A stretch of 64,000 nt of DNA from a virus. The first letter of the stretch is position 1. Each line of letters starts with the position of its first letter. A model generated the notes under the pieces. The model saw only the letters and a list, made by a program, of their open reading frames with translations. It had not been told where the DNA came from and did no database searches. A program made the position numbers and the translations under genes. Of this stretch, positions 17,518-53,068 are shown one piece after another. The stretch lies in the IMG/VR virus record IMGVR_UViG_3300045988_168866; one strand, 5' to 3'.

Positions 17518-18282
17518 ATGAATATAGAAATAAAATCAATCTTTGGTGAGATTCTATTTTCTTTTGAGAAAGAGAACAACACAATCAAAGATACTTTACT
17601 AGAAGCTTATTTAGAAGGCATCAATTTAGAATATTCAGACTTAAAAAAAGCTAACCTAGAAGGAATAAATCTAAAAGAAATCAACCTTAAAGGAGCAGAT
17701 CTCAGAGAAACAAATCTAAGATACTCAGATCTCAGAAATGCTAACTTAGAAGATGTTGACTTTAATGAATCCGACCTAAAGGGAATTAACCTAGAAAATG
17801 CCAATCTAAAAGGAGCTAATATAAGTAATACCAATTTAAATTGTGCTAACCTAAATGGTGCTAATTTAGAGAATATTAAGTATTCCATATATACAACCTT
17901 CCTGTCATTACAATGCCCATCTGAAGGAAGTTTTATGGGATGGAAAAGAATTGATAAATACATAATCAAATTAAAAATACCTGAAGATTCAGAAAGAAGT
18001 TCATCAACAAATATAATATGTAGATGTTCAAAAGTAGAAGTACTAGAAATACAAAATATTGACGGAAGTATAGAGCCTGATATAACAGAAATATGTTCCA
18101 ATCATGATAAAACCTTTATATACAAAGTGGGTGAAATAGTTGAAGTAAAAAACTTTGATAAAAATAGATGGAATAAATTTTCAAATGGGATACATTTTTT
18201 TATAGATAGGAATATGGCTGTAGTTTATGGAAGTAATTTATTGGGTATTAAAGATATCAATCTGTACCTGAAACAATATTAG
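17518..18282 (+). CDS. pentapeptide-repeat protein with a Cys-containing C-terminal domain
   Basis: Residues about 30-120 form tandem A(D/N)LxX pentapeptides (ANLEGINLKEINLKGADLRETNLRYSDLRNANLEDVDFNESDLKGINLENANLKGANISNTNLNCANLNGANLENI); C-terminal domain ends '..NGIHFFIDRNMAVVYG'. Confidence 0.85.
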   Translation: MNIEIKSIFGEILFSFEKENNTIKDTLLEAYLEGINLEYSDLKKANLEGINLKEINLKGADLRETNLRYSDLRNANLEDVDFNESDLKGINLENANLKGANISNTNLNCANLNGANLENIKYSIYTTFLSLQCPSEGSFMGWKRIDKYIIKLKIPEDSERSSSTNIICRCSKVEVLEIQNIDGSIEPDITEICSNHDKTFIYKVGEIVEVKNFDKNRWNKFSNGIHFFIDRNMAVVYGSNLLGIKDINLYLKQY

Positions 18283-20974: not shown

Positions 20975-21838
20975 CCTGAACAGGTATTAAAATTTTAACC
21001 TGATTTAGAATCCTGATTTAATTTACCTGATTAATTATCTTGTTATTATTACATGATTAAAACCATTCAAGATATTATCAGTATTTATCATGTTTAATTT
21101 ATCAGGTTAGAATAATTGGTTCTCTAGAATAATTTCCTGTGGGCCTATCCTGAACCTGAATTAACCCATATATTATAATATAAATAAACATTTAGGAACA
21201 TGATAAATTAATCCTAATTGGTAAACATGATAAATAATACATGATAAAATTACCTGTTTAATTTATCCTGATTTGGAGTCCTGATAATTTTAACCAATAT
21301 ATTATATAATATAATAAATTAAGAACCTTCAGGAACCTGTTTTAATTAACCTGATATAAATAACATGTTAAGAATAACCCAATTTAGAACCTGATAAAGT
21401 GTCCTGATTAGAATATCCTGTTATTTTTTAACCTGATTAGTTAAACCTATTATAATATATTATATATACATGATAATAAAAACTATTCAGGATTAGTATC
21501 ATGTTTTAAATATCAGGATATTAAAAATTGCCTTCTGGGCTACCCATAACGGGCCTTACCAGATCCTGATTAATTTATCCTGAATTAGTTATCCTGATTA
21601 ATTAACCCAATATATTATATATAATATAAATAAAGCCTGGGATTCAGGATACTTTTCAGGATATTATTATTTTACTCCTTTGGGCTTATAGGGGCCTTAC
21701 ATCCTCTACACGTTGTAGCTGGTTTACACATCCTGAATAATGGGCCTTGGTTCCTTCCTGACTTAAATCCTGAATACATTTTTTCAGGCAATTTTTTAAT
21801 AATTTCAGGCAATTTCAGGTACCGTTTGGGCTGCCTGA
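20975..21838 (+). repeat. left arm: array of about 22 CCTGA(T) boxes organised in 4-5 degenerate 120-160-nt composite units
   Basis: Hand-located CCTGA at 20975, 20999, 21012, 21026, 21149, 21155, 21267, 21280, 21350, 21390, 21403, 21432, 21565, 21579, 21593, 21732, 21757, 21769, 21834 and CCTGT variants; AT-palindromic boxes at about 21163, 21292, 21443, 21604. Confidence 0.85.
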
Positions 21839-21839
21839 T

Positions 21840-21990
21840 TTTATAATTTCAGGTACCCAAAAGTAGCCCAAAAAGGGGCGTTTGGGCCCTATTTTTTGAA
21901 AATGCCAACTAGCAAAAGAGGTGGTGGAAACAGTGCCCAGAGAATACTTTGGGCTCACCGGACAATAGCGGGTGCACTATATGTTTTTGG
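21840..21990. other. GC-rich core between the repeat arms
   Basis: Visibly GC-rich relative to the flanks; contains 'agcccaaaaaggggcgtttgggcc' (inverted gcccaaa/tttgggc), 'ggtggtgg' and several TTTGGGC(C/T) boxes. Confidence 0.7.
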
Positions 21991-22020
21991 TATATGTATT
22001 GTATGGTTTTGATTGTATAT

Positions 22021-22028
22021 TATATTTG
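22021..22028 (+). promoter_or_regulatory. orphan TAnnTTTG box facing rightwards with no + strand ORF downstream
   Basis: The + strand reads TATATTTG at the inner edge of the right repeat arm. Confidence 0.35.
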
Positions 22029-22347
22029 GTTTATTTTTTATTATTATATTATCAGGATTATATTGGTTTTATTTATCAGGTATTCTAATCAGGATATTTT
22101 TATCTTGTATTTTTAATTAGGTTTTTATTATCTGGTAATTAATATCTTGTTACTTTATTGGGATTTAAATATTGGGTTTATAATTTCATGTTTTAATTAT
22201 CATGATTAATATATTGGGTTAATTAATCAGGATTTTATTAACATGTTATTTATATCATGTATGGGTTATTATAATTAGGTTAATTATTTTTTTAATATTA
22301 TTTTTTTGTTTTGGTTAGGGATGGTGTATTATTTTTCTGGGTTCAGG
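22021..22347 (+). repeat. right arm: TCAGG / ATTGGG boxes in the orientation opposite to the left arm
   Basis: TCAGG at 22052, 22076, 22089, 22227, 22343. The 25-mer 'atatattgggttaattaatcaggat' at 22209-22233 is the exact reverse complement of 21591-21615. Confidence 0.8.
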
Positions 22348-22412
22348 ATGGTTTGGAGGTAATATTTTATTATTTTGTGTTTGGGAATTTGGGATTCTGA
22401 TTTAATAGAATT

Positions 22413-38665: not shown

Positions 38666-39611
38666 TTATTAAGTCTACTAATAATTTTTTCCTATTTCTA
38701 TCTTTAATTCCTTTAGCTTTGAAATATCCAGATACTAATTTTTTATTTGATAGATCTAAAGTAATATTATGTTCTTTTGTCTCTTTATCATCTATAATTG
38801 GTTTGTTTATGATAGTATAATAATTACCATCATCTTTTACATATTCTTCAGATGATACATCAATAAATTTTGGGAATTTAGTAAATGGTATAAATTCCAT
38901 GGATAAATCAGAATATAACTTCCAATAACCTAATTCACAATTTTTATCAGTTCTTCTTTGTTGTAAAGGTGCACCTACCATATATACCTTTTTTGATAAT
39001 CTTTGTGGTTTATGTATATGGCCACATAATACTAAATCAAATTTGAAGAAACTGTTTATGTTTATATTTTCTACTGAACCAACTTCCACATCATCTGTGT
39101 CTTTTGCACCAGGATAATCAGTATGTATAAGTAATATATTTTTCTTATCATTGACTATGGGTATTTCTTTAACCCATTTAGTTAACCCTATATTGTGATC
39201 TAAATATGGTATGCCATGTATAATTATATCACCAAATTCTGCAGCCCTAAAATCTATACAGGTAATAAACTTATATATTTTAGAAAAAGAACTTATCCAA
39301 CTTGATGATTTATTTCCTATTGAATTAGTTTTTGACATATCATGATTACCTGATATACAAAATAAATTCCAACTTCCATCATTAAGTTTATTAAATTCTC
39401 TTATAATAATTTCAAATAAATCATTAGTAATTAATTCAGGTTTATGGAATAAATCCCCACAAAATATTCCTTGGCATTTGTATTTATTACATAATTCTTT
39501 TACTAAAGAAAGAACCTTAAAATGATTTAAGGTTCTTATATTATCCTGATTAAATTTTGCCCATTGATTTATATGAAGATCAGAGAATACTATAGCTGAT
39601 ACTTTTTTCAT
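38640..39611 (-). CDS. sbcD: SbcD/Mre11-family nuclease (T4 gp47-like)
   Basis: Calcineurin-like phosphoesterase motifs 'FSDLH', 'GDLFH', 'GNHD', 'IHTD', 'GHIH' in the canonical order. Confidence 0.85.
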   Translation of the reverse strand: MKKVSAIVFSDLHINQWAKFNQDNIRTLNHFKVLSLVKELCNKYKCQGIFCGDLFHKPELITNDLFEIIIREFNKLNDGSWNLFCISGNHDMSKTNSIGNKSSSWISSFSKIYKFITCIDFRAAEFGDIIIHGIPYLDHNIGLTKWVKEIPIVNDKKNILLIHTDYPGAKDTDDVEVGSVENININSFFKFDLVLCGHIHKPQRLSKKVYMVGAPLQQRRTDKNCELGYWKLYSDLSMEFIPFTKFPKFIDVSSEEYVKDDGNYYTIINKPIIDDKETKEHNITLDLSNKKLVSGYFKAKGIKDRNRKKLLVDLINECDDRIH

Positions 39612-40270
39612 CTTAAGAATGACTTTATTATATTTTTTCTCCTATCTAATGTAATATCTCTCAATATTAAAATATTTACTGATTTATCCTCCCCATAATC
39701 AATAATGTTACCCATTTCAGTCTTTCCCCCAAATTTTAATGAGAAAAATGAAGATTTATTATATCCCATAATATCTTTAATTACACCGTCCATTATTAGG
39801 GATATCTGATATTGGTAATATCTATTTGTTATCCTTTTACCATTATCTTCCATATTCCATTTTCTAGTATCAAAGTATTCTATTGTAAATGGTATATAGA
39901 TAATATGAGTAAATTGTTTAAATAATAATACTTTACATTGTTCAATAAAAGTATCCATATCACATTGTTGATGCTTATGTGATAATTTATTTATCATATA
40001 AGCTACTGAATCAATATAACATCTATCTGTTACAAAATCTCTATCCTGTTTAGCATATAGATTTCTTCTTTTATTTAACAATTGGTATTCCTTCATAAAT
40101 AAAGGCATATTAACCATTTCTTCATGTGTTATATTTTTAGTTTCAGGTATTAAATCTGAATATGAAGAAGATATAAAAGGTATTTTATATTCTTCTGATA
40201 TCCATTTTGCTAAAGTAGTTTTACCTATACCACTTGGACCTGCAAAACCTATTCTTCTGAATTCTTCCAT
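39608..40270 (-). CDS. P-loop (deoxy)nucleotide kinase-like protein
   Basis: Walker A 'GPSGIGKTT' at residues about 11-19 and 'DRCYIDSVAYM', which resembles the DR...S..AY motif of dNK/thymidylate-kinase-type enzymes. Confidence 0.45.
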   Translation of the reverse strand: MEEFRRIGFAGPSGIGKTTLAKWISEEYKIPFISSSYSDLIPETKNITHEEMVNMPLFMKEYQLLNKRRNLYAKQDRDFVTDRCYIDSVAYMINKLSHKHQQCDMDTFIEQCKVLLFKQFTHIIYIPFTIEYFDTRKWNMEDNGKRITNRYYQYQISLIMDGVIKDIMGYNKSSFFSLKFGGKTEMGNIIDYGEDKSVNILILRDITLDRRKNIIKSFLR

Positions 40271-41223
40271 GATTTTAATGTTTTAAATGGTTTTATAAAT
40301 TCACTTGTTAAAAATGAACCCAAAGTATATTCCTTAAATATGAATTGTAGTTTCTTAGTATTTATGGTATCTTTTTTATAAAAAATTACTGGGATTTTAT
40401 TTAATGGGTATTCTTTTAATGCAACCCTTATATCTATAAGTGGTTTATTTCTTTTATATAAATCCTCTAGTCCTTCAAAATCTATACCATTAAATTCATT
40501 ATCTTTATTTGAAAGAAAATTCTCTATAGAACCAAATTCATCCAAAAATTTTCTAGCTTTTACTGGTCCTATACCTTTATAACCTGGTATATCATCTGAT
40601 TTATCACCAACTAAACATAAATAATCAACACATTCTTTTGGTGAATAACTCATTTCTTTTGTACAAGTTTTTTCCTGTATTATACATTCTTTAAAAGGAT
40701 TATATATTTTAATGTTGCCATCTATTAATTGACAAAAATCCTTATCTGAAGATATTATTAATACTTTACCATTATGATTTAATGCATAATGCCCAATATA
40801 ATCATCAGATTCATGACCTAACCCTTTTTTGTCCCATACTACTGGTATGTTTAAATATTTCAGGATTTTTTTTACTGTTCTTAATTGTTTATTAAAACTT
40901 TCATAATCCATAGAAATATTTTCTCTGTGTTTTTTATAACTACCCAGTAAATTATTTCTAAAATTACTTTCTTTACTTTGTTTGGTATCAAAAGTTATAA
41001 TCAAATAACCAGGTCTAAACCTTATTAAATATGAATTTAGTAATCTCATAAACCCATAAATTAAACCAGTTGGAACCCCATTATAAGATCTTAACTTTTC
41101 AAATTTTTGATAAGCTCTATGTGCTAAATTAGAACCATCAATTATCATTAATTGTTTTCTATCTGATTTTTTACGCTTCTTCTTCATAATCATCATTTTC
41201 TTCTGAATCATTGAATGATTCAT
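40249..41223 (-). CDS. 5'-3' exonuclease / flap endonuclease (RNase H-like, Pol I N-terminal type)
   Basis: 'LMIIDGSNLAHRAY' (compare LLLVDGSSL.FRA), 'SSDKDFCQL', 'GDKSDDIPGYKGIGPVKARKFL' H3TH motif. The true start is probably an internal Met around 41187. Confidence 0.85.
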   Translation of the reverse strand: MNHSMIQKKMMIMKKKRKKSDRKQLMIIDGSNLAHRAYQKFEKLRSYNGVPTGLIYGFMRLLNSYLIRFRPGYLIITFDTKQSKESNFRNNLLGSYKKHRENISMDYESFNKQLRTVKKILKYLNIPVVWDKKGLGHESDDYIGHYALNHNGKVLIISSDKDFCQLIDGNIKIYNPFKECIIQEKTCTKEMSYSPKECVDYLCLVGDKSDDIPGYKGIGPVKARKFLDEFGSIENFLSNKDNEFNGIDFEGLEDLYKRNKPLIDIRVALKEYPLNKIPVIFYKKDTINTKKLQFIFKEYTLGSFLTSEFIKPFKTLKSWKNSEE

Positions 41224-43393
41224 ATTCTACACTATCATCTACTGGATAATAATTCTCGGTTAGTTTTCCTAGTTTTTTATTAGTTGAACCTATAGTATTT
41301 ATATTAGCAGCTCTTAATAATTTTCTTCTCAAATCTTCATCTTCTTCCATAAGTTTAATAAACTTCTCTTCACCTCTACAAAGAGTTTTACCTTTATACT
41401 TATATACACCACCTGAAGATTTTTCTATAATATCATTTTCTACTAATACATCTTCTAATCCATAATATCTATCAAAACCAACTGAATGAAATTTTGGATT
41501 GAAATAAACTGGGCATTTACTAATTGTTGGCCTTGGTGGAGCTACCTTATTTTTAATAAGTCTAACAGTTACTAATTTACCAGCTTTTCTTTCTTTACCT
41601 TTTTGTTTAACTGTTATAGATTTTCCTGAATAAAAAGCAGCTCTGATAGAAGCATAGAATTTAAGAGCTGCTCCACCAGTTGTAGTATTATGTACTACTA
41701 TACCTTGTTCTTTAGAACCAGCCAAGAAATTATGATTATCTGATATAGTAATATCATATTTTTTTCTCTTATAACTTCTTTTAAACCTTCTATTTTTAAT
41801 ATCAAATTCCTTATTTATAGATATGATACTTACTTCTATAGGTATATACTCTTCTTTAAAATCTAAATAATATGGTTTATATTTACCAGTATATCCAGGT
41901 AACATTTTATATTGCATAGATTCTATAACATATTCCTGAATTTGTTCCATTAATTTTTTGGAACCCTCATTAGTAAATTTTATACCATGATTATATATTT
42001 TGTTACTTAAACCACATATATCAGATAGATATTTTGATAATTTACTAATATCTGTTCTATTTGGTGAAATAGATATACCTACAGTAACATTATTATATTT
42101 ATGCCCATCATCCATATACCATACAGCTAAAGTAATTGGTGATAGTGGTTTGGATAAATCCCATAATTTTAACGGGTCTTTATCTTTACCTATTTTATCA
42201 TATATTTCCTGCAATTCAGTATAACCAACTTTTGTAATCCATCTATTTGGATTATTACCTTTCATTTTCATTGGAAAAGCTTTACTTATCATCTCTGTCT
42301 TAAACATAAGGTAATCTTCCTGTTTACCATTACTAAATGTAAGTCTAGTAGTATAATTACCATGATTACTAAATAAAGAACAATCAAAAGGTATAGTCCC
42401 CCAAAGAAAATCTTTTAATGTACCATTTATAACTCTTCTTTGTTTAGATATTAATTTATCATTTATATCAATATCTATAGCCTTTTTCCAACCATGGTTA
42501 GTTAAACAATGATGAGTATATGTACAAGTGAATCCATTAAAACCATTAACTGTTTCTGGTCCTTCAGTTTTAAATTGAATCCATTTTTTGGTTTCAGATT
42601 TTACTACCCAATCAATTATTGGTTTTGGTTCAAATTTTTTAGTATTTTCATTATAACTCCAAACTTCCTTTGATACCCTATTTTTAATAATATCTCCTAT
42701 TTTCATTGAAGTACCATCGACAAAAGGTATCATAGTATCATAATGTAAACAAGTATTATCTTTACCAAATCCTACATTTAAAGCTGTCCTTAACTGATTT
42801 ATATAAATTTGGGTTATACCTAGTTTATAGAATAGTTCACTTCTAATACGAAAATATTTATAAAGAGCTTTTGCTCTTCCACCCATTTCAGCTTTTCCAT
42901 CAACCATTTTAGAATCTATATTATCAGCACAATCCATAGCAGCTATGGAGTCAACTACTAATAATATTGGTTCATTATTTGTTAATTGTGACCTTAAATA
43001 TATAGCTATATCAGCTACTGCATCAGATACATATTCTATTCTAGTATCTCTTATTACTGTTACTTTATCAGGATTAACTCCATTTTCTTTGGCCCAAGAA
43101 TTCATCCATGATTGTTCAGCATCTACCCATATAACATGACCACCAAGTTGTTGGCATGAATAAGCAAAATTATATGCTATAAGAGATTTTCCTGAGGATT
43201 CTTCACCTGCTACTTCAAGTATTTTACCAAATGGTATACCACCACCAAAAGTATAGTTTAATGCAAAAAATGTTGATGGTAACCATAAACCTGATTCTTT
43301 TGTTTCAGATGCAGTTACTATCATATCACCATACTTTTTATTTATTTCATTTATTGAGGGTATCTTTATCCCTATTTTCTTCTTTGCTGCCAT
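41171..43393 (-). CDS. recA: RecA-family recombinase, interrupted by an intein
   Basis: Walker A 'GEESSGKS', Walker B 'ILLVVDSIAA', 'YINQLR', and the RecA signature split as 'GFGKDNT | intein | TTTGGAALKFYASIR'; acidic C-terminal tail. Confidence 0.9.
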   Translation of the reverse strand: MAAKKKIGIKIPSINEINKKYGDMIVTASETKESGLWLPSTFFALNYTFGGGIPFGKILEVAGEESSGKSLIAYNFAYSCQQLGGHVIWVDAEQSWMNSWAKENGVNPDKVTVIRDTRIEYVSDAVADIAIYLRSQLTNNEPILLVVDSIAAMDCADNIDSKMVDGKAEMGGRAKALYKYFRIRSELFYKLGITQIYINQLRTALNVGFGKDNTCLHYDTMIPFVDGTSMKIGDIIKNRVSKEVWSYNENTKKFEPKPIIDWVVKSETKKWIQFKTEGPETVNGFNGFTCTYTHHCLTNHGWKKAIDIDINDKLISKQRRVINGTLKDFLWGTIPFDCSLFSNHGNYTTRLTFSNGKQEDYLMFKTEMISKAFPMKMKGNNPNRWITKVGYTELQEIYDKIGKDKDPLKLWDLSKPLSPITLAVWYMDDGHKYNNVTVGISISPNRTDISKLSKYLSDICGLSNKIYNHGIKFTNEGSKKLMEQIQEYVIESMQYKMLPGYTGKYKPYYLDFKEEYIPIEVSIISINKEFDIKNRRFKRSYKRKKYDITISDNHNFLAGSKEQGIVVHNTTTGGAALKFYASIRAAFYSGKSITVKQKGKERKAGKLVTVRLIKNKVAPPRPTISKCPVYFNPKFHSVGFDRYYGLEDVLVENDIIEKSSGGVYKYKGKTLCRGEEKFIKLMEEDEDLRRKLLRAANINTIGSTNKKLGKLTENYYPVDDSVEYESFNDSEENDDYEEEA
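41687..42751 (-). mobile_element. intein (355 aa, residues C215-N569 of RecA) with a LAGLIDADG-type homing endonuclease domain
   Basis: Starts 'CLHYDTMIPFVDG' (Cys codon 42749-42751); block B 'TYTHH'; 'LAVWYMDDGH' LAGLIDADG-like motif; blocks F/G 'KYDITISDNHNFLAGSKEQGIVVHN' followed by Thr (Asn codon 41687-41689). Confidence 0.9.
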
Positions 43394-44569: not shown

Positions 44570-44944
44570 TTATTTATTTAGCTCTATATAGATAATTTCA
44601 TTGATAGATAATACTGTAAATTCCAAATCAGGATAGTCAATTGTAGATAGATTTTCAGGTTCTACTTCTTTACCAGCATATATACCGTAGGTAACTATAT
44701 TACCCACTTTTAGTAAACTTTTCCAATTATCTTCTTCAATAATACCTGATTGAATTATAACACCTTTTCTTGGTATATCTTCTTTTGCATTATCAGGTAA
44801 AATAATACCACCAGAAGTAGTTCTATTTTTACTATTTTTAGGTGATGCAATAAGTACCCTATTTATACTGGGTATACCATTTTCTAATACTTTACTAATT
44901 TCTAAAGCTTTTTCTTTACTAATAAGGTTTAATTCTACTTTCAT
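44570..44944 (-). CDS. groES: GroES-like co-chaperonin
   Basis: 'RVLIAS....TTSGGIILPDNAKE..RKGVIIQSG...LKVGNIVTYG.YAGKEVE' follows the GroES pattern (R.L....E..T.GGI.LP..A.EK...G.V.A.G....V..GD.V.....YG). Confidence 0.6.
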   Translation of the reverse strand: MKVELNLISKEKALEISKVLENGIPSINRVLIASPKNSKNRTTSGGIILPDNAKEDIPRKGVIIQSGIIEEDNWKSLLKVGNIVTYGIYAGKEVEPENLSTIDYPDLEFTVLSINEIIYIELNK

Positions 44945-44983: not shown

Positions 44984-45418
44984 TCATTGTTGCTTTCTTA
45001 TATTAGCTGATAATGTTTGTATTATCCTTTCTCTTGATTCATAAGCTTTACATATACTAATAAACCTATTAGCTTTATCTAAAGCTTTTAAATATTTATC
45101 ATTTGCTTTTATATATATTTTACTTGTTAAAGCTTTATGTGATACAGTATCATTATTTAACCTATTATCAGATTCCTTATAATATAACCAAGCTTTACTA
45201 TATGCATAATCCTTTTCTTTTTCTAATTTATCTCTCCTTTTTATTATCTTATCTCTTAATAAACATAAAAAAGCATAATTAGAGGGTATATTTTTTAATT
45301 GGCTATTAATTATATTTTCATTAATTTCTAGTTCTCTAGAAATATTTATAGTAACCAATTTTCCTTTGTATTTAAAGGATATTATATCATCCTTTATTTC
45401 ACTTATCTTTGTTTCCAT
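44984..45418 (-). CDS. hypothetical protein; possible UvsY-like recombination mediator (position and size only)
   Basis: 144-aa helical, basic ORF inside the recombination gene set. Confidence 0.25.
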   Translation of the reverse strand: METKISEIKDDIISFKYKGKLVTINISRELEINENIINSQLKNIPSNYAFLCLLRDKIIKRRDKLEKEKDYAYSKAWLYYKESDNRLNNDTVSHKALTSKIYIKANDKYLKALDKANRFISICKAYESRERIIQTLSANIRKQQ

Positions 45419-45894
45419 AATATCCCATATTTATGTAATATTTCATAATATTTACCAATTGATATCTTATATTTTGATAAAATAACCTTTCGGGTTATAC
45501 CAGAAGAATACATTCTACATATACCTATTTCATCTACCATTATCCTACCACGTTTATCCCACCCAATATGATAAGACCCATCTATTACTGCTTGATGCAT
45601 ATTTTCTTTTGGTGTACCCCAATATAGATTATCTATACAATTGTTAACCCTATTATTATCTTTATGGCATACAAATGGTTTATTATCAGGATTTGGTATA
45701 TATACTTCTGCCACTAATCTATGACGATATTTATTAGTTTTTATATCACCATTCCATAATATATTAGATATATATCCAGTATTTTTAATATTACTAGCCA
45801 TTTTAACCCATATACCGTTATTATTTTTCCTGAATAACTGACCATCTTCACTTATATGATAATTTGGAAATCCTTTTATATTACTCTTCATCAT
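45403..45894 (-). mobile_element. free-standing HNH (NUMOD4 + HNH_3 type) homing endonuclease gene
   Basis: 'GFPNYHISEDGQLF' plus 'HRLVAEVYIPNPDNKPFVCHKDNNRVNNCIDNLYWGTPKENMHQA'; 163 aa; overlaps the polymerase stop by 14 nt and the next ORF start by 16 nt. Confidence 0.85.
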
Positions 45895-48202
45895 ACCTCT
45901 TCTTATTAAAGTTTATTATATCTTTATATATAAGAGGGTAACACCCTGGATTTTCTATATCTACACCATATTTATCCAAATATTTTTTACGAACATTATT
46001 ATATTGTATATAATAATCATCAGAATTAAAATCAGGTAATAGCATTTTATTATAATCATACTCAGGATTATATGGTAATTCTTCTGCCATATTTCTACCT
46101 ATAGTAAAATTCATTGACATATCCACATCATCTATACTAAAACCAAAATATTTCTTTGTGGAAGGATTTCTACATATATCCCATATTTTATATATTGTAT
46201 CTGGTGTAATATATTTTGGTTCTATAAATTGATAAACAGAGTCATGTACAGTATCAACTTCTATCATGGGTGGTAATTTACCTTTTTTTACATCTTCATA
46301 TACCATAATAGATGCAAATAATGCCATATCTGAAGCTGCTGATTGACATGGCATATTTGTAGATTGTCTAAGTGCTTCAAGATACTCACCATAATTTTCA
46401 GAATATACCTGTGGACATCTTCTTTTCCTACCAAAAAGAGAAACACAATATCCATGGGATTCCATATAATTATGTTGCTTTTCCATATATTTCTTTATTC
46501 TGGGAAAAGTTTTAAAATAATCTTCTAAAAATTCTTGAGCTTCATTTATTGAAACAGATTCTTCTGGTGTTGATAATGATTCAGCTAATTTAGGAGCTGA
46601 TTGTTCATAAACAATACCAAAATTAATAGTTTTAGCTTGTTTACGTCTCTTTTTCCATAATTTATATTCAGGATGTAACTCATCTGAATATATTTTTATT
46701 ATCTTGTCATAATCTTCATGATATTTTTTACAAGCTGAAGCTAGATGAATATCCTTCCCAGTTTTAAACCATTCCAACATAGTTTTTTCTTTAGCTAAAT
46801 GAGCTAATATTCTTAATTCTGCTTGTGAATAATCATATGTTAAAAACAATTTACCTTTTGGAGTTATGAATTGTAATTTAACATCAGGATTAACCATAGT
46901 TTTTGGTATATTTTGTCCATTGGGATTCCGTGAACTCAACCTTCCACTGGTTGTACCATGTAATAGAAAAGTAGGATGTACACAACCATCATCCTGTACT
47001 AATTCACCTAAACCAACTATAAAGGTTGAATTAATAGTTTGTATACCTCTTAAATCTAAGAGATTATTTATAAATCCAGTACTATCATGTTCTTTTAACT
47101 TTAATAAAACATCTTCTGATGTACTAGGATTTGTAGTTTCCTTTTTTGTTTTGGGATCCTTGGTATATTCTATTATTGGTAATTTTAACCCTTTCTTTGA
47201 TAAGAAAAGAAAATCCACCATTTGTTTTTGTGATTTGAAATTTATAGGTTCTAATAATTTCATCTCTGATTTAGTAGAGAATTCCCCAGCCATTAATCTA
47301 GATATTTTATCTTCTCTATTTTTTATGCTTCTAGATACATTCTTACCTTCTTTTTTTTCTTGTTCCCTAAGATTATCTATTTCTTCATATAGAGAATTTA
47401 TATAATCTTCTTTTCTTTTCTTTAGCGTGTATTTTTCATAAATTCTTACTTGTCTAATAGACCTTAAATTTGTTTCATATGTTTCTATTTGATCAGCATA
47501 TTTTTTTATTAACTTTCCATTTAACTCCTTGTCAAATGGTAAACCAAATTTCTCAGCTGATTGTAATACTCTACTTGCAGACATTAACAAATTCCTATAT
47601 AAATTATAGAAATTTTTATATATTAACTTACTTTCAAAAAATATACCTAATCTTAAAGTAAAATCAGTATCCATACAACCATATCTACATAATTCTTCCA
47701 ATGGTTTCTTATCCCATGATATACTATCAAATGAATCATACTTTTCATAATTAGCAAATTCTGGTAAAAATCTCCTTACCATACTTTTTAAATCATTGGG
47801 TCTAGTTTCATCTAAAAGATACTTAGCTAACATACCATCTATAACAGTACCTCTTGAATAAATACCATATTTTTGGAATATCTGATTATCAAATTTCCAA
47901 TTCCAAGCTATTTTTACTATATCTGGATTTTCTATTACTTTCCTACCAAAATATAATAACCATTTTAACCATTGATTATCTTTTCTTAAAAATTGTACTG
48001 ATTTATCAAAATGTAGTAAAGGTATTGATACTCCTGAACCTGCTTGAAATGATACTGATAATATTGTGGGTCTAAAATCATCCATATATAAACCCTTAGC
48101 ATTAGTTTCAAAGTCAACAGAAGCATACCCTGTTTTTTTACAGGATTTTACTAACTCCTTTAACTCATTAAAATTTTTTATTATATGATACCTGGTTTTC
48201 AT
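45881..48202 (-). CDS. polA: family A DNA polymerase with 3'-5' exonuclease domain
   Basis: Exo I 'SVDFETN'; motif A 'DYSQAELRILAHLA'; motif B 'RRKQAKTINFGIVYEQS'; motif C 'TVHDSV'. The ORF track starts at 48253, but the hydrophobic 17-aa leader is implausible and the ATG at 48202 (MKTRYHII..) is preferred. Confidence 0.93.
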   Translation of the reverse strand: MKTRYHIIKNFNELKELVKSCKKTGYASVDFETNAKGLYMDDFRPTILSVSFQAGSGVSIPLLHFDKSVQFLRKDNQWLKWLLYFGRKVIENPDIVKIAWNWKFDNQIFQKYGIYSRGTVIDGMLAKYLLDETRPNDLKSMVRRFLPEFANYEKYDSFDSISWDKKPLEELCRYGCMDTDFTLRLGIFFESKLIYKNFYNLYRNLLMSASRVLQSAEKFGLPFDKELNGKLIKKYADQIETYETNLRSIRQVRIYEKYTLKKRKEDYINSLYEEIDNLREQEKKEGKNVSRSIKNREDKISRLMAGEFSTKSEMKLLEPINFKSQKQMVDFLFLSKKGLKLPIIEYTKDPKTKKETTNPSTSEDVLLKLKEHDSTGFINNLLDLRGIQTINSTFIVGLGELVQDDGCVHPTFLLHGTTSGRLSSRNPNGQNIPKTMVNPDVKLQFITPKGKLFLTYDYSQAELRILAHLAKEKTMLEWFKTGKDIHLASACKKYHEDYDKIIKIYSDELHPEYKLWKKRRKQAKTINFGIVYEQSAPKLAESLSTPEESVSINEAQEFLEDYFKTFPRIKKYMEKQHNYMESHGYCVSLFGRKRRCPQVYSENYGEYLEALRQSTNMPCQSAASDMALFASIMVYEDVKKGKLPPMIEVDTVHDSVYQFIEPKYITPDTIYKIWDICRNPSTKKYFGFSIDDVDMSMNFTIGRNMAEELPYNPEYDYNKMLLPDFNSDDYYIQYNNVRKKYLDKYGVDIENPGCYPLIYKDIINFNKKRYDEE

Positions 48203-48269
48203 AAAAAATACACTCATTAAATATAACAAAAAAAGGAAATGGTAAATAACCATTTCCCAAGTTAATTGT

Positions 48270-49028
48270 CTAATAATTACTCAATGAGGTTTTTAATTTT
48301 ACCCAATCTTTTTTATAAGAATGTAATGAATCTATTGTATGATATAAATATCCTGATTTAATACCAACTTTATTTGCTACATAATCTTTTAATAACCAAG
48401 CTAAATATACATCATTACCAAAATGTGTTATAAAATCAGAACTTCTTTGATGATAACATATATGTAATACTTTTTCTTTTTTATTGTTTTCTCTTATAAG
48501 AAAATCATAATACATTGAACATGGTATTCTATAATTACCATCTAAATGGTAATCATCTGATTCATCTAAATAATGACCATATACATCCAGTACTGCTTTT
48601 CTAGTATCACTATCATCTTTTAAAAGAAAAATTATAGCATTTAACTTAGTCATGTTTATACCTCTATAAACTACTTGTTGATTAAATCTTTCTGAATATG
48701 TATAATCAAAAATACCACCATTTAAAAATTCTTTCCATAAATCTTCCCTTAGTTTATAGGCTTCTCCTGGATTTATTGGATAACCAGATATTCTTTCTTT
48801 AAATTCAGCATCAGCCCACTCTTTAGAATTTGAATAAATAAATAGATATTCTGGTTTATCTAAATCTGTTAAACAATACTGTTTACTTATTATTTCCTTG
48901 GTTATAAAATCATCATTACCCTCAATCTTCTTATTCTGATAAGTTTTTGGTTTTACTTCTATACCCATTTCCCATAAATCTCTTGCCATTTCAGACATTA
49001 ACTCGTAACAATCACAATAAATTCTCAT
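48270..49028 (-). CDS. thymidylate synthase / dCMP hydroxymethylase-family pyrimidine C5 transferase
   Basis: 252 aa; 'DSDTRKAVL' (compare DSRR), catalytic-Cys context 'RIPCSMYYDFLIRE', 'CYHQRSSDFITHFGNDVYLAWLL' (compare ThyA QRS.D..LG.PFN and T4 gp42 MRSNDVVFGFRNDYAW, both from memory), 'DSLHSY'. Confidence 0.7.
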   Translation of the reverse strand: MRIYCDCYELMSEMARDLWEMGIEVKPKTYQNKKIEGNDDFITKEIISKQYCLTDLDKPEYLFIYSNSKEWADAEFKERISGYPINPGEAYKLREDLWKEFLNGGIFDYTYSERFNQQVVYRGINMTKLNAIIFLLKDDSDTRKAVLDVYGHYLDESDDYHLDGNYRIPCSMYYDFLIRENNKKEKVLHICYHQRSSDFITHFGNDVYLAWLLKDYVANKVGIKSGYLYHTIDSLHSYKKDWVKLKTSLSNY

Positions 49029-49082
49029 GTTCTTATAATTTAATATATTAATTTATATCTAATAGATATATGAAGATACCTT

Positions 49083-49865
49083 TTAGTCAATGTTTAATTT
49101 ACAGTCTCTAATTTTGAAGTCTGGTTGTTTAAAATTTTGTGGTTGTAGTACTTTTAATACTCTTTTAAATATTTTATATTTGATATCATCTATGTTAGTC
49201 TCTTTTAGATATTTTAATTCACTTAATAAAAACTTAGATCTTTCATCTATATTCCCTTTTAATAATCCTCCTATATTTCTATGTACATCATACATAAGCA
49301 ATGTAGTAGAGTTATTCCATAAAATATTAGTATGTATAGTTAAAGTATATGGTAAATCACCAAATATGAAATCACCAAGTCTTTTAAATAGAATCAAATC
49401 TATAAGTAATCTTTTAGTAACTTCTGTTGATCTCAGATATATAGATAAATTCAAAAATTTCTTACCAGTATTACTAAAACTAGAATATACTGACATAGAC
49501 ATTAAACAATTTTTACCATTTTTATGTGAATTAGAAAACTGATAACCAATGCTGTAAATGTTATTTTTAAAATTTATGCTACTTATTACATCTGACTTAA
49601 ATTTTAACAAGCTATCTTTATCAATATAATTATTAATCAAATTAACCCATTTTATTTTGGTATAATGAAATTGTTTTCCCAAACTAAAATCTTCATCTAA
49701 TTTTTCAGGATACATTATACCAAATGAAAAATCATGTGTATAGGTCTTATATTTATCACTTCTTAAATTCATAGATTTACTATGATTTTTTATAAAATCC
49801 TCATTTATAGATTCCCAAGCTGATAATATATCATTAAACCATATAAACTTTAAAGGAGAGTCCAT
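49083..49865 (-). CDS. divergent thymidylate-synthase-fold paralog
   Basis: 'GKNCLMSMSVY' (Cys) and 'LSIYLRSTEVTKRLLIDLIL' align with the Cys and RS.D......(N/D) motifs. Clear paralog of 49906-50892. Start moved to the ATG at 49865, which is preceded by AGGAGGG 6 nt upstream (ORF track: 49937). Confidence 0.45.
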   Translation of the reverse strand: MDSPLKFIWFNDILSAWESINEDFIKNHSKSMNLRSDKYKTYTHDFSFGIMYPEKLDEDFSLGKQFHYTKIKWVNLINNYIDKDSLLKFKSDVISSINFKNNIYSIGYQFSNSHKNGKNCLMSMSVYSSFSNTGKKFLNLSIYLRSTEVTKRLLIDLILFKRLGDFIFGDLPYTLTIHTNILWNNSTTLLMYDVHRNIGGLLKGNIDERSKFLLSELKYLKETNIDDIKYKIFKRVLKVLQPQNFKQPDFKIRDCKLNID

Positions 49866-49905
49866 TTGAACCCTCCTACTAAATTTTTTTTTGAGGTTAT
49901 TATTT

Positions 49906-50892
49906 TTATTCTTCTTCATTCTCCTCAATATTTTCACTTTGATTATCTAAAATTGAACCATCTGTTTCATTAAATTTTATTACTTTTGATTTATTTGGTT
50001 CAACAAACATCTTTAAATCATACTTAGAAATGAATTTTAAATAAGCCTTTTTGATGTTATTTCTTACAATAATAGATGGGCATTTTTCTGGTAATGGTAT
50101 ACCATCCCAATCACCAATAATACAATCCTTTGCTAATAATGATTTCTTTTCTTTACCATATTTTTCTGGATTAAAGATTTTATAGACCCTCATATAAGCT
50201 TGGTATTTTGGATCTACCCCATCATCTGCTGCTCTCTTAACTCTTCTTAATGTTTTAGATAACCTCTTTCTTCTCTTCTCATCTTCTATAGCTTTTATCA
50301 ATGGTTCTATTGGTTCATAACCATTATAAAGCATCAAACTTGTATCATCAGCAAAAGCAGACCTTATGAATAATTCTATTGTAAAATCTTTATGACCATA
50401 AATATATTCTCCTATCCTTATTGATAGTAATAAATCCCATGGTAATCTTGTTACAACATCTGAAGCTCTCATTAATATTGTTAATCTTGGTTTATCAATA
50501 TTAATCATTCTTGAGAACATACCAGACATTAAACAACCTTTACCATTACCATGAGCATCTGCAAAATTAAATCCTATATTGTAATTTCTATTAATGGTTT
50601 TATTCTTTTCTAATTCACGTATTTGAAGCTTCAAAGAATCCATTGAATCTAAATCCAAATAATTACCTAATAGAGAACTCCATTTACTCTGTGAATAACC
50701 CAATATTTTACCAAAATCAAATTCTGGATCAAATTCTGCATTAGTTATTAAAACTGATAAACCATAAGTATAAAGAGAATTAGTTATAATTGCTCCTTGA
50801 TTCTCACTAAACAATTCAGGGTCTTGGTTAATAAATAATTTATTTATTTCTGACCAAGCTTGATGACCATTTTCAAATATAAAACTTTTCAT
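49906..50892 (-). CDS. divergent thymidylate-synthase-fold paralog with C-terminal extension
   Basis: 'GKGCLMSGMFS' and 'LTILMRASDVVTRLPWDLLL' (compare ..YQRS.DVFLGLPFNIAS..); about 120-aa basic/acidic C-terminal extension. Confidence 0.45.
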   Translation of the reverse strand: MKSFIFENGHQAWSEINKLFINQDPELFSENQGAIITNSLYTYGLSVLITNAEFDPEFDFGKILGYSQSKWSSLLGNYLDLDSMDSLKLQIRELEKNKTINRNYNIGFNFADAHGNGKGCLMSGMFSRMINIDKPRLTILMRASDVVTRLPWDLLLSIRIGEYIYGHKDFTIELFIRSAFADDTSLMLYNGYEPIEPLIKAIEDEKRRKRLSKTLRRVKRAADDGVDPKYQAYMRVYKIFNPEKYGKEKKSLLAKDCIIGDWDGIPLPEKCPSIIVRNNIKKAYLKFISKYDLKMFVEPNKSKVIKFNETDGSILDNQSENIEENEEE

Positions 50893-50895
50893 AAA

Positions 50896-51747
50896 TTAGT
50901 AATTACTTTTTTGTCTAAATAAATTTACTTGGTTCTTTTTAAAATATAATAGATATAAATCTTCTTGGTTTATACCCATTTTATAAAAAAGACCCATCAT
51001 ATATATGAAAGCTAATACTATTTCTTCCTGGTATTTCTCTTCATTAGTCATCTCCTGGGATTGTTTCCAAGGTTTATTTTTTAAATAATTTCTAGCAATA
51101 TTTAAATGGTAAGTTACATCCCAAATTATTGGTTTATATTTTTCATAAATATTATTACCTATTTCTACACCACATTTTAGTAATCTAAAATCCTGAGATT
51201 TTATTTCTTTGGGTAAATCTTCATCATCTTTTACAATATTCAGAATATTTATACCACAACAAATTTCATTATCAACAGAATTAGTAAAATAATTCATGCA
51301 TAAATCTATAATACCATTACCTTCTTCTTTAGTATATTTCTGATTTATGTATGATTTTATATCCTCTGGGTATATATTTGAATAGATAAGTAATTCAACC
51401 ATAAAATGCATAGCATCAGCCATTTCTTCACCAGCATTTTGTATATGATTTAAAGTTTGTAATAAATCCGAATCATTATAATCAGATAACCATAATTTGT
51501 TTTTATTGGTTAATTCCAAAGCCATTAATAATGATTCATAACCTTCAGCTAATTCTTCTATTACTCTACCAACAAAATCCTTTATAAGAATCTGGGATTT
51601 TTTTGAATTTATGTTTATTGGGTATTGAGGTAATCCCTCAATCCTAATATATCCTTCTAGTAGATTTTTTTGTAGTTCATATATCTTTTCAAGATATTGG
51701 TTATTTTCTACTTTATCTGGTTCTAATTTAATATCTCTGCTGTCCAT
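50896..51747 (-). CDS. all-alpha NTP pyrophosphohydrolase (MazG / dimeric dUTPase / dCTPase superfamily)
   Basis: Acidic metal-binding motifs 'VIEELAEGYES' and 'AGEEMADAMHFMVELLIYS' in helical context; sits between the TS-fold genes and dUTPase. Confidence 0.45.
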   Translation of the reverse strand: MDSRDIKLEPDKVENNQYLEKIYELQKNLLEGYIRIEGLPQYPININSKKSQILIKDFVGRVIEELAEGYESLLMALELTNKNKLWLSDYNDSDLLQTLNHIQNAGEEMADAMHFMVELLIYSNIYPEDIKSYINQKYTKEEGNGIIDLCMNYFTNSVDNEICCGINILNIVKDDEDLPKEIKSQDFRLLKCGVEIGNNIYEKYKPIIWDVTYHLNIARNYLKNKPWKQSQEMTNEEKYQEEIVLAFIYMMGLFYKMGINQEDLYLLYFKKNQVNLFRQKSNY

Positions 51748-51827
51748 TTTGTTTTTCTGAATTAGTATTTATCCACCAATCTGGAATATAAGTATCTGTT
51801 GAGTTAGTTAGTATATCCATTTTTTCA

Positions 51828-52379
51828 TTATCTACCTGTTGAACCAAAACCACCTTCTCCTCTGTTTGAATTATCCTTAACAATTAATTTGGCCCAATTC
51901 AACTCATCTACTTCTAACATATTTGATAGGATAATCGGTGTATGAAGGAATTGTATTAATTTGTCACCAGAATTAAAGGTTACTTGAGTCTCCCCCAAAT
52001 TTAAAATACCAATATGAACTTCACCCCTATAATCTGAATCTACCACTTGAGCTGTAAATTGTAAACCATGTTTGGTTGATAGTCCAGATTTATTTGCTGC
52101 TATTAAAGCAGAGTTTTTATTTTCTATGAAAACCTTAATACCTGATGGGATCAATAATCTATGTCCTGGTAAAATTGATAAAGAATTATCGTTTAATCTG
52201 TACCACCAAGATGTATTCAATTCCTTGAATCTAGTTATAAAATCTTCTGTAAACTTTGGTAAATAAAAATCAAATCCTGCTGATTGTTCAGTACCTCTTG
52301 TTGGTGATTTTACTTCCCTTACCTTGATAAAATAAATTCTATCTTGGTTTGTCATACTGTCATTTACTATTTCTGCCAT
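51828..52379 (-). CDS. dut: trimeric dUTPase
   Basis: Motifs 'SAGFDFY', 'NKSGLS', 'VVDSDYRGEVHIGILN', 'RGEGGFGSTG' in canonical order. Confidence 0.9.
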   Translation of the reverse strand: MAEIVNDSMTNQDRIYFIKVREVKSPTRGTEQSAGFDFYLPKFTEDFITRFKELNTSWWYRLNDNSLSILPGHRLLIPSGIKVFIENKNSALIAANKSGLSTKHGLQFTAQVVDSDYRGEVHIGILNLGETQVTFNSGDKLIQFLHTPIILSNMLEVDELNWAKLIVKDNSNRGEGGFGSTGR

Positions 52380-52777
52380 TATTTTGTTGATTTAAGTTTT
52401 TGTTCTTTGTAAAGTAATCTAGCTTCCTTTATTGAAAGTTCATATTTAGCTTGGATTTTTTGTATAATAGTTTTTTTATCATCTCCTTTTCTTTTCAAAG
52501 CTCTAATAGATTTGAAAACTGCTGATTTATCCACCAATATTTCCAAATCCTTGTACTGATTTTCTTTTTCCAATTGTTTTCTAGTTTTACCAACTTTATC
52601 TGCAAATTTTATACAACATAATTCAGAATCTCCACACATCTTACATTCCTTTGTTGAGAGGTCATATTCTTTTCCAAAACATGGATCAGTATCTAAATTA
52701 CCCAGTGAACTTATATCAACTGGTTTTAAAATTGGCATTGTTGAAATATCTGGTAAAGTTTGTTTTGTTTTTTTCAT
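52379..52777 (-). CDS. hypothetical Cys-rich protein
   Basis: 132 aa with 'CFGKEYDLSTKECKMCGDSELCCIKF'. Confidence 0.45.
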   Translation of the reverse strand: MKKTKQTLPDISTMPILKPVDISSLGNLDTDPCFGKEYDLSTKECKMCGDSELCCIKFADKVGKTRKQLEKENQYKDLEILVDKSAVFKSIRALKRKGDDKKTIIQKIQAKYELSIKEARLLYKEQKLKSTK

Positions 52778-52985: not shown

Positions 52986-53018
52986 GATTATAATTTGTCA
53001 AATTGACAAATTATAATC
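52986..53018. repeat. 33-bp perfect palindrome (16-bp arms)
   Basis: 'gattataatttgtcaa a ttgacaaattataatc'. Confidence 0.9.
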
Positions 53019-53043
53019 CTCCAGTTGGAGAATCCAACTGGAG
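53019..53043. repeat. hairpin palindrome (11-bp arms, 3-nt loop)
   Basis: 'ctccagttgga gaa tccaactggag'. Confidence 0.9.
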
Positions 53044-53068
53044 ATAGTTATATTCTATAAGAATCATT

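Follow-up and report, generated by a model that had tools for sequence, protein, structure and literature searches.

Replacement of pyrimidines by members of the thymidylate synthase (TS) family is one of the main routes by which phages escape restriction and CRISPR. In phage T4, the pathway consists of the dCTPase/dUTPase gp56, the dCMP hydroxymethylase gp42 and the dNMP kinase gp1: dCTP is destroyed, dCMP is modified by a TS-fold enzyme carrying Asp at position 177 (Escherichia coli TS numbering), and the product is phosphorylated and incorporated. TS folds are also found in the flavin-dependent dCMP hydroxylases, namely AfhB of phage HY126 (PDB 9iqu/9iqc), RB69 gp48 and DLP3 gp80, which are compact enzymes acting on dCMP with a non-folate cofactor, and in the cytosine-specific CMP 5-hydroxymethylase MilA (PDB 5jnh, 5b6d), which has Asp at the N177 position. 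The closest known system to the locus described here is the 5-methylcytosine (5mC) cassette of phages Xp12 and PaMx74, which comprises a nucleoside triphosphate (NTP) pyrophosphohydrolase, an Asp177 TS and a 5mC-selective deaminase, with or without DHFR, and in which the TS product is a C5-modified dCMP that replaces C. Here we analyse a nucleotide module in a 64,000-nucleotide stretch of viral DNA (IMG/VR record IMGVR_UViG_3300045988_168866, hereafter the window). It contains three consecutive open reading frames (ORFs) on the minus strand, ORF3 (49906..50892, 328 amino acids), ORF2 (49083..49865, 260 amino acids) and ORF1 (48270..49028, 252 amino acids), next to a family-A DNA polymerase gene (PolA).

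The unusual element of this locus is not the count of three TS-fold genes, but an unnamed protein family, here called X, which is strictly paired with a TS subfamily of a special kind, here called TS1. ORF2 is the ancestral-type and ORF3 a derived member of X, and ORF1 is a TS homolog of the TS1 type. What is conserved as a unit is one X-family protein together with one TS1-type TS. A first-pass annotation of the window, made from the letters alone, had stressed three TS-fold paralogs in a row; these are indeed present, yet they represent a local duplication of the X/TS1 pair and not its basic form. Based on predicted structures, X is an undescribed and very divergent branch of the TS superfamily. 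That modified cytosine can be made by a TS homolog, a pyrophosphatase and a phage polymerase was already known; new are X as a family, the strictness with which it is coupled to a dedicated TS subfamily, its occurrence in well-known phages and its duplication, on none of which we found a paper. The branch has been overlooked because no profile library detects X. As an overall explanation, we propose that the cassette makes a C5-modified dCMP for phage DNA, with X acting on the same nucleotide, a view that we hold with slightly less than even confidence.

The paralogs ORF2 and ORF3 share 31% identity (E=3e-33). Neither had a match in Pfam, PHROGs or NCBIfam, nor in searches of the PDB by sequence or by profile. 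Among their relatives, 61 were likewise without a Pfam match, and PHROGs and NCBIfam gave no match for selected members of the X family. Because pairwise BLAST against ORF1 reaches just E of about 0.1, the likeness of their motifs to TS could in principle be fortuitous and the two proteins could have another fold. Structure prediction with AlphaFold2 (AF2) makes this extremely improbable. The ORF2 model, built from 81 sequences, has a predicted local distance difference test (pLDDT) value of 95.6 and a predicted template-modelling (TM) score of 0.93, and its top 50 Foldseek matches in the PDB all have the TS fold, the best being the cytosine-specific enzymes MilA (2e-6), AfhB (2e-5) and T4 dCMP hydroxymethylase (1e-4). 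The independent ORF3 model (15 sequences, pLDDT 75.1) also retrieved TS folds exclusively in its top 50, AfhB being the best (9iqu, 8e-5), and for both proteins these TS-family matches have a probability of 1.0. Against BFVD, a collection of predicted viral structures, the matches were TS and gp42-type dCMP hydroxymethylases. Furthermore, aligning the ORF2/ORF3 family by hhalign to a TS alignment composed of ORF1 relatives, T4 gp42 and E. coli ThyA (the latter two identical in sequence to PDB 1b49 and 1aob) gave P=3e-4 in the predicted register, placing C120 of ORF2 and C170 of ORF1 on C146, an Arg on R166, an Asp or Glu on D169 and an Asp on N177. On these models, ORF2 and ORF3 share the TS fold, and a non-TS fold was rejected on the grounds of AF2/Foldseek, BFVD and hhalign. 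PDB matches of X alignments to an alphaRep, a centrin and a hotdog-fold protein were dismissed as chance hits. The first-pass annotation had proposed all three proteins as TS folds, to be checked by this kind of structural comparison, and had named the nucleophilic Cys and the substrate-binding segment; Pfam for ORF1, the models for ORF2 and ORF3, and the hhalign positions of Cys, Arg166, Asp169 and Asn177 bear it out. Its five ORFs lie where it had placed them, with all quoted motifs present in the translations.

An exhaustive profile search resolved X into 168 representative clusters, most members having 250–300 amino acids. Across 81 X sequences, mostly less than 40% identical, K72, L76, Y80, C120, R145 and D156 (ORF2 numbering) are invariant, and Y68, W73, E148, R152 and R235 are at least 90% conserved. 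The resulting signature, G-K-x-C-L-x-S ... R-[AS]-S-E-[VI]-T-K-R-L-x-x-D, reads GKNC120LMS and R145-S-T-E148-VTK-R152-LLI-D156 in ORF2, and GKGC120LMS and R142-A-S-D145-VVT-R149-LPW-D153 in ORF3, with the D169 position being Glu in at least 90% of the family. In all three TS-fold proteins of the window, the N177 position is occupied by Asp, pointing towards cytosine nucleotides as their ligands. In addition, two X tyrosines align with Y94 and Y209 of TS. In the E. coli enzyme, Y209 contacts the deoxyribose 3'-OH, and its retention suggests that X would act on a mononucleotide. X thus keeps the Cys nucleophile, the phosphate-binding Arg, the cytosine-selecting Asp and two Tyr, and is without the usual residues of the folate wall and the arginines supplied by the partner subunit. 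It is about 40 residues shorter where TS has E58, W80 and W83, for which no equivalents were aligned in this low-confidence part of the alignment; the same holds for R126/R127. At the TS G173 position, X has an invariant Arg or Lys. Judged by these residues, X has the look of an active enzyme whose co-substrate site is altered, of an obligate TS1 partner, or of both.

The C-terminal regions of X are more variable. A helical region following the TS core is common to ORF2 and ORF3, and the part specific to ORF3 amounts to about 70 residues ending in an acidic disordered tail (residues 298–328), rather less than the 120-residue extension that had been ascribed to it. Acidic disordered tails are general among ORF3-type proteins. 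Elsewhere in the family, three representatives (P0148, P0167, P0187) carry AT-hook-like GRP motifs and seven have Lys-rich tails. Such tails hint, on weak evidence, at tethering to DNA or to the replisome.

In contrast to ORF2 and ORF3, ORF1 is recognized by sequence profiles (PF00303, 47.5 bits against a cut-off of 24.3; phrog_160, E=3e-20). Its nucleophile is Cys170, and its D206 aligns with T4 D179 and E. coli N177, while D198 occupies the D169 position. In E. coli numbering, ORF1 carries Arg143, Ser147, Asp169, His173 and Asp177, where TS has L143, H147, D169, G173 and N177; it retains R126 and has Lys for R127, the alignment is uncertain for the R21 and E58 equivalents, and the C-terminal tail, which closes the active site in TS, is missing. 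The TS proteins of related cassettes were aligned with the ThyA of E. coli, gp42 of T4, the PaMx74 enzyme and one canonical ThyA from a phage. Throughout the core, where the alignment is good, ORF1 and every cassette TS have Arg at L143, Ser or Thr at H147, Asp169, His173 and Asp177; moreover, the cassette proteins carry Gln or Lys in place of R127 and have no C-terminal tail. The R143/D169/H173/D177 signature was found in 115 of the 118 TS genes adjacent to X, and by these residues TS1 appears as an Asp-type TS subfamily of its own.

Published residue rules narrow down the possible activity of ORF1. With Asp at N177, the substrate of TS-fold enzymes changes from dUMP to dCMP (Hardy & Nalivaika 1992; Liu & Santi 1992; both cited in PMC8670742 and PMC13326640); a bulky hydrophobic residue at L143, Leu in the methylases, is associated with methyl products and Asp or Glu, through which water is admitted, with hydroxymethyl products (PMC13326640), and D169N marks the flavin-dependent 5-hydroxy-dCMP synthases (PMC13326640). 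The combination of Asp177 with Asp169 therefore indicates that ORF1 binds a cytosine nucleotide, as we infer from these residues, and is not a 5-hydroxylase: D169N is absent from ORF1 (D198), ORF2 (E148) and ORF3 (D145) alike. Arg143, however, fits neither the methyl nor the hydroxymethyl rule. ORF1 does not have the Asp or Glu at L143 of a T4-type hydroxymethylase, and it departs from the Xp12-type dCMP methyltransferase at positions 127, 143, 147 and 173, by the missing tail and by the lack of a deaminase in the window.

To define how X and TS1 are distributed, loci were selected from either side of the pair. In roughly 200 loci from metagenomes and in the genomes of about 115 deposited phages, X invariably lies between a MazG-like pyrophosphatase and TS1, next to PolA. 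In every one of 117 loci selected by X, an Asp-type TS adjoins X. Conversely, among 80 viral contigs selected by TS1 motifs, X is located directly upstream in at least 72, and at least three of the loci in which X was not seen are truncated at TS, leaving no room upstream. In viral contigs overall, one X motif had 558 matches and TS1 514. In a collection of 50,697 phage records, 114 carry a TS1-type TS, with genus counts equal to those obtained from three X queries (Gordonia 68/68, Clostridium 10/10, Mycobacterium 9/9, Serratia 6/6, Pseudomonas 5/5). Among 185,579 prokaryotic genomes, the X motif occurred on five contigs of metagenome-assembled genomes only, all of phage size. Most commonly, a locus runs helicase, small protein, (dUTPase), pyrophosphatase, X, TS, PolA and contains just one X gene (about 70 of the 117 X-selected loci); two X genes, in the X-X-TS order of the window, occur in about 30. 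The ORF3-type motif RASDVVTRLPWD is restricted to loci with two X genes, which makes ORF2 the ortholog of the universal X. ORF3 is, to judge by this motif, a lineage-specific duplicate of the X gene represented by ORF2, and as a duplicate it keeps all catalytic residues.

The near-exceptionless co-occurrence of X and TS1, whose genes often overlap by 1–4 nucleotides in cultured phages, raises the possibility that X is a non-enzymatic or half-site partner and that a TS1-X heteromer with one active site makes plain 5mC or 5-hydroxymethylcytosine. Proteins of the TS fold occur as obligate dimers, with arginines shared across the subunit interface. R127 has disappeared from TS1, and X is without an R126/R127 equivalent, so that the losses complement each other. 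Asp-TS enzymes of the Xp12/PaMx74 type, which carry the full canonical residues, have no X. On the other hand, Cys, Arg and Asp remain invariant in X over very large distances, unlike in a pseudoenzyme; gene overlap is common throughout these operons and hence not specific to X and TS1; and no X-TS1 fusion was present among 149 representatives, in which the extra length of long X proteins is low-complexity tail. On balance, we consider a purely supporting role of X unlikely.

Carriers in culture were found through a structural match to a hypothetical protein of Pseudomonas phage PMBT14. Besides PMBT14, they include Almagne, Serratia phage Serbin, Tlacuache, Opt-155, Yersinia phage P744, Brevundimonas phages and ten Clostridium perfringens phages, among them CPAS-15. 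In actinophages, the cassette is carried by Mycobacterium phage Muddy (gp49–gp44, X being gp47), NoShow and 68 Gordonia phages, as well as by Microbacterium, Curtobacterium and Streptomyces phages (for example Gordonia Emalyn and Streptomyces Zuko). The hidden Markov model of the X family scores CPAS-15 at 172 bits, PMBT14 at 56 bits and P744 at 54 bits, and the actinophage X proteins align to the family with an hhalign probability of 98.3% (E=1e-14), keeping Cys, Arg and Asp. In cultured phages, the thymidylate-kinase-like gene comes first, followed by the all-alpha pyrophosphatase, X, TS, the dCMP deaminase and PolA. Compared with the window, these cassettes contain just one X, mostly have a dCMP deaminase behind TS, and lack the trimeric dUTPase. 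X has been annotated in cultured phages as 'hypothetical', as 'pyrimidine hmase synthase' or, wrongly, as 'WcaC glycosyltransferase'. The second label, attached to the protein of Yersinia phage P744 and to one metagenomic record, shows that the fold had already been noticed by a pipeline. The third is found on CPAS-15 gp21 (locus L123, 4196-4945), labelled 'colanic acid biosynthesis glycosyltransferase WcaC', which is the 172-bit X-family TS-fold protein. Gordonia phage Emalyn gp46 (locus L124, 3809-4654), noted as ThyX, is a ThyA-fold protein of the TS1 type. Some loci have a further TS-fold gene. In three gut-phage loci, the fourth such gene of the cassette is a canonical ThyA with Asn177 and a full C-terminus (L019 8993-9970, L026 3668-4639, L029 6938-7855), and Microbacterium phage Triscuit gp67 (locus L125, 4765-5562) is likewise a canonical ThyA with Asn177 and a full C-terminus. 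These phages thus carry a dTMP synthase right beside TS1 and X.

Having delineated the X/TS1 pair, we can compare it with the described cassettes. As in Xp12 and PaMx74, the pyrophosphatase of the window adjoins an Asp177 TS homolog with a family-A polymerase close by. The PaMx74 TS keeps R21, E58, R126/R127, G173 and the long C-terminus, with only N177 changed to Asp, unlike ORF1-type enzymes with R143, H173, Q/K127 and no tail; an X-family gene was not found in 30 kb of PaMx74, and the window is without the deaminase and DHFR. Relative to T4, ORF1 resembles gp42 in its RS-D...FxND segment and in the absent C-terminal TS tail. T4, however, has one Asp-type TS-fold enzyme where the window has three, gp42 has Asp at L143 and E60 where ORF1 has Arg143 and an uncertain E58 equivalent, and no glucosyltransferase was found in the window. 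A T4-like logic had been proposed for the locus before; the pyrophosphatase, the TS-family enzyme and the phage polymerase agree with it, although ORF1, with Arg at L143, is not identified by its residues as a T4-type hydroxymethylase. Structurally, the AfhB-type hydroxylases rank first or close to first among the neighbours of ORF2 and ORF3, and in PDB sequence searches they give the top match of ORF1. They differ by D169N, present in none of ORF1, ORF2 and ORF3, and by arabinosyl- and glycosyltransferase genes, of which the window has none. MilA, the top Foldseek match of the ORF2 model, is a bacterial enzyme of an antibiotic pathway with a ribonucleotide substrate, and the match has 9–11% identity and a TM-score of about 0.4.

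A recent metavirome study provides the nearest experimental context. Contigs on which TS(D177), a PRA-PH/MazG domain and PolA lie no more than 3 kb from a dCMP deaminase were strongly enriched in C5-modified DNA resistant to C5-sensitive restriction enzymes, and five of seven such TS genes made 5-methyl-dCMP (bioRxiv 10.1101/2024.12.05.627091). The same preprint reports that the deaminases convert 5-methyl-dCTP to dTTP in phages that replace C by 5mC, such as Xp12 and PaMx74, and that phages with the Xp12 cassette carry 5mC in virion DNA (bioRxiv 10.1101/2024.12.05.627091). The PaMx74 polymerase gene is located more than 5 kb away from the deaminase, and the enriched neighbourhood seems to fit the X-type cassette better than PaMx74.

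These deaminases also give weight to the idea that the cassette reshapes the dNTP pool only, for instance from dCMP via 5-methyl-dCMP to dTMP and dTTP, and leaves virion DNA canonical. Most non-gut cassettes have a gene of the dCMP-deaminase family right after TS together with a thymidylate-kinase-like gene, 5mC-selective deaminases yielding dTTP are documented (bioRxiv 10.1101/2024.12.05.627091), and genome announcements annotate these genes as thymine synthesis. The window genome, with 26% G+C, would moreover need much dTTP. Against this, a tblastn search with three deaminases and a six-frame zinc-motif scan found no dCMP deaminase in the 64-kb window, and the gene is absent from about 110 of the 117 related gut-phage loci; the thymidine route is therefore unavailable here, and modified dCMP, having no obvious way to dTMP, should end in DNA. 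In addition, some relatives have added a separate canonical ThyA, and phages with the Xp12 cassette do carry 5mC in virion DNA. Pool balancing is thus plausible for deaminase-bearing cassettes, not for the window, and as an account of the system as a whole we regard it as distinctly unlikely.

A more far-reaching alternative is that X performs new C5 chemistry and that the final base is an undescribed hypermodified cytosine. X might re-activate 5-hydroxymethyl-dCMP through a Cys-C6 adduct and exchange the hydroxyl for another nucleophile, or use a non-folate cofactor, as AfhB uses flavin, and the two X paralogs of the window phage would then give a two-step product or two different products. 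Several features are in keeping with this: the catalytic trio is invariant while the region of E58, W80 and W83 is apparently missing (about 40 residues shorter), the invariant Arg/Lys of X and the His of TS1 at G173 both fall in a segment that contacts the cofactor, the flavin-dependent dCMP hydroxylase AfhB is among the best structural neighbours, the ORF3 duplicate keeps all catalytic residues, and unforeseen reactions have come from the TS superfamily before (PMC13326640). However, no genes for donor synthesis and no glycosyl-, carbamoyl- or amino-acid transferases were found in the window, residues of the N-terminal half cannot be mapped reliably, and the D169N signature of the hydroxylases is absent. 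A Pfam scan of 30 further window ORFs likewise disclosed no glycosyl-, carbamoyl- or methyltransferase, no kinase and no pyridoxal-phosphate enzyme. We consider it improbable that X has such an activity. With similar reserve, we suggest that the X/TS1 pair may make a cytosine derivative undescribed in any DNA, in many human-gut phages as well as in Muddy, PMBT14 and the CPAS-15 group, the two X proteins of the window adding a step or a second product.

The genes surrounding the pair form a nucleotide module with it. In the order of transcription, the module consists of a small Cys-rich protein, a trimeric dUTPase, the all-alpha pyrophosphatase, ORF3, ORF2, ORF1 and PolA. As these genes are on the minus strand, the cassette lies upstream of PolA in the direction of transcription; the first-pass annotation had it downstream. 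The small Cys-rich protein (52379..52777, minus strand, 132 amino acids, phrog_13400), with no assigned function, is the first gene and keeps its position in nearly all related gut-phage loci. It is followed by the trimeric-type dUTPase (51828..52379, minus strand, 183 amino acids), which scores 62.7 bits with PF00692 (cut-off 22, E=3.7e-17) and matches phrog_135 (E=1.5e-27), and which is present in most, not all, related loci. The next gene encodes an all-alpha, dimeric-dUTPase/MazG-like NTP pyrophosphatase with the motif NKPWKQ (50896..51747, minus strand, 283 amino acids), scoring 35.2 bits with PF08761 (dUTPase_2, cut-off 22.9) and matching phrog_12184 (E=9e-21). Both enzymes had been correctly recognized before, and both Pfam scores are above the cut-offs. 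The pyrophosphatase has a weak match to the Campylobacter dimeric dUTPase 1w2y and is homologous to the cassette enzymes Muddy gp48 (5e-11) and CPAS-15 gp22 (1e-19), and would probably be a dCTPase or dUTPase that supplies dCMP. ORF2 starts at the ATG at 49865, with AGGAGG at 49877-49872, seven bases ahead.

PolA (45881..48253, minus strand) always adjoins the cassette and presumably incorporates the modified dNTP. Since its homology begins at residue 18, the first 17 codons of the ORF are probably untranslated. A terminator-like hairpin with a 10-bp stem and a T run (48234..48258, minus strand) lies between the ORF1 stop and the probable true PolA start, and another with a 12-bp stem (53018..53044, minus strand) between the upstream helicase gene and the nucleotide module. 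The two bracket the module, and the latter is likely to be the upstream limit of the transcription unit. An HNH_3 endonuclease ORF (45403-45894, minus strand) overlaps the 3' end of the PolA gene, and in the relatives MT121960, MT121964 and several IMG/VR loci, the PolA match is split into two or three pieces or falls in ORFs about 3.2 kb long, a pattern suggestive of mobile insertions. MT121964, about 47% identical in X, also encodes a DNA cytosine methyltransferase (locus L032, 4682-5677), of which no homolog was found in the window. Further away, a P-loop protein at 39608..40270 (minus strand) may be a (d)NMP kinase. It matches phrog_2107 ('thymidylate kinase') over residues 6–168 (E=1.4e-13); in Pfam, it hits AAA_28, with dNK at 17.8 bits (0.003), below the cut-off of 27, and the cassette-kinase profile matches at the P-loop only, with 13 bits. 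Of the nucleotide-kinase-like gene proposed earlier at this position, the P-loop is thus confirmed, while a kinase identity is backed by nothing stronger than the PHROG match and a sub-threshold Pfam score, and its membership in the pathway is uncertain.

Taken together, the stretch from 52777 to 48270 on the minus strand may form one transcription unit, a deoxycytidylate-modification cassette that would supply the adjacent phage PolA. The all-alpha pyrophosphatase and the trimeric dUTPase would turn dCTP and dUTP into monophosphates, removing dCTP and providing dCMP. ORF1, whose substrate class is deduced from its residues, would then add a one-carbon group at C5 of dCMP, yielding 5-methyl- or 5-hydroxymethyl-dCMP, and ORF2 and ORF3 would act on the same cytosine nucleotide, either as a second catalytic step or as the obligate TS1 partner. 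Finally, a kinase would make the triphosphate and PolA would incorporate it, such that virion DNA would carry a modified cytosine.

A number of points weigh against this pathway. dCTP as the substrate of the pyrophosphatase is itself inferred, and the kinase assignment is weak. X reaches TS profiles weakly (hhalign probability 18–40%), and the Foldseek TM-scores are modest (0.38–0.55). The MetaGPA contigs and the seven TS genes of the metavirome preprint appear to be tied to X/TS1 by gene neighbourhood alone. Muddy and many Gordonia phages have been handled routinely without reported DNA modification; in the literature on PMBT14, Serbin, P744, Muddy and the actinophages, we found neither a description of X nor modified DNA. 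The cytosine methyltransferase of MT121964, moreover, would be pointless if every C were already replaced.

Were the DNA indeed modified, the consequences would extend to biases in gut-virome sequencing, to the immunology of phage therapy and possibly to new enzymes for DNA labelling. Several carriers are in culture, and Muddy has been used clinically. To our knowledge, every new branch of the TS superfamily that was studied has given a new base or a new chemistry: 5-hydroxymethylcytosine, 5-hydroxymethyluracil, 5mC and, recently, 5-hydroxycytosine.

The remainder of the window is that of a tailed phage. It has a G+C content of 25–30% with most genes on the minus strand, and encodes a baseplate wedge protein, an endolysin, a DnaB-like helicase, a primase, SbcCD, a RusA-like resolvase, a gp32-like single-stranded-DNA-binding protein and a recombinase; its relatives are uncultured contigs of 75–88 kb, many of them from human faeces. 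The RecA/UvsX-like recombinase gene (41171-43393, minus strand) is split by an intein that contains a LAGLIDADG endonuclease (Pfam matches: RecA, Intein_splicing and LAGLIDADG_2), and a gene for a Cpn10/GroES-like co-chaperonin (44570-44944, minus strand) lies between the genes for the single-stranded-DNA-binding protein and PolA. In a small plus-strand block, 17518-18282 encodes a pentapeptide-repeat protein with a C-terminal DUF5758, which may be a DNA mimic or an anti-defence protein. Lastly, positions 21000-22400 comprise about 1.4 kb devoid of ORFs of 90 or more amino acids, with no Rfam match and no tRNA. CCTGAT-containing units of 14–28 nucleotides at 21010-21630 and ATCAGG units in the opposite orientation at 22040-22260 form long imperfect inverted repeats, and the GC skew rises to +0.37 at 22–24 kb. 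This array may be an origin or a set of binding sites for a regulator.

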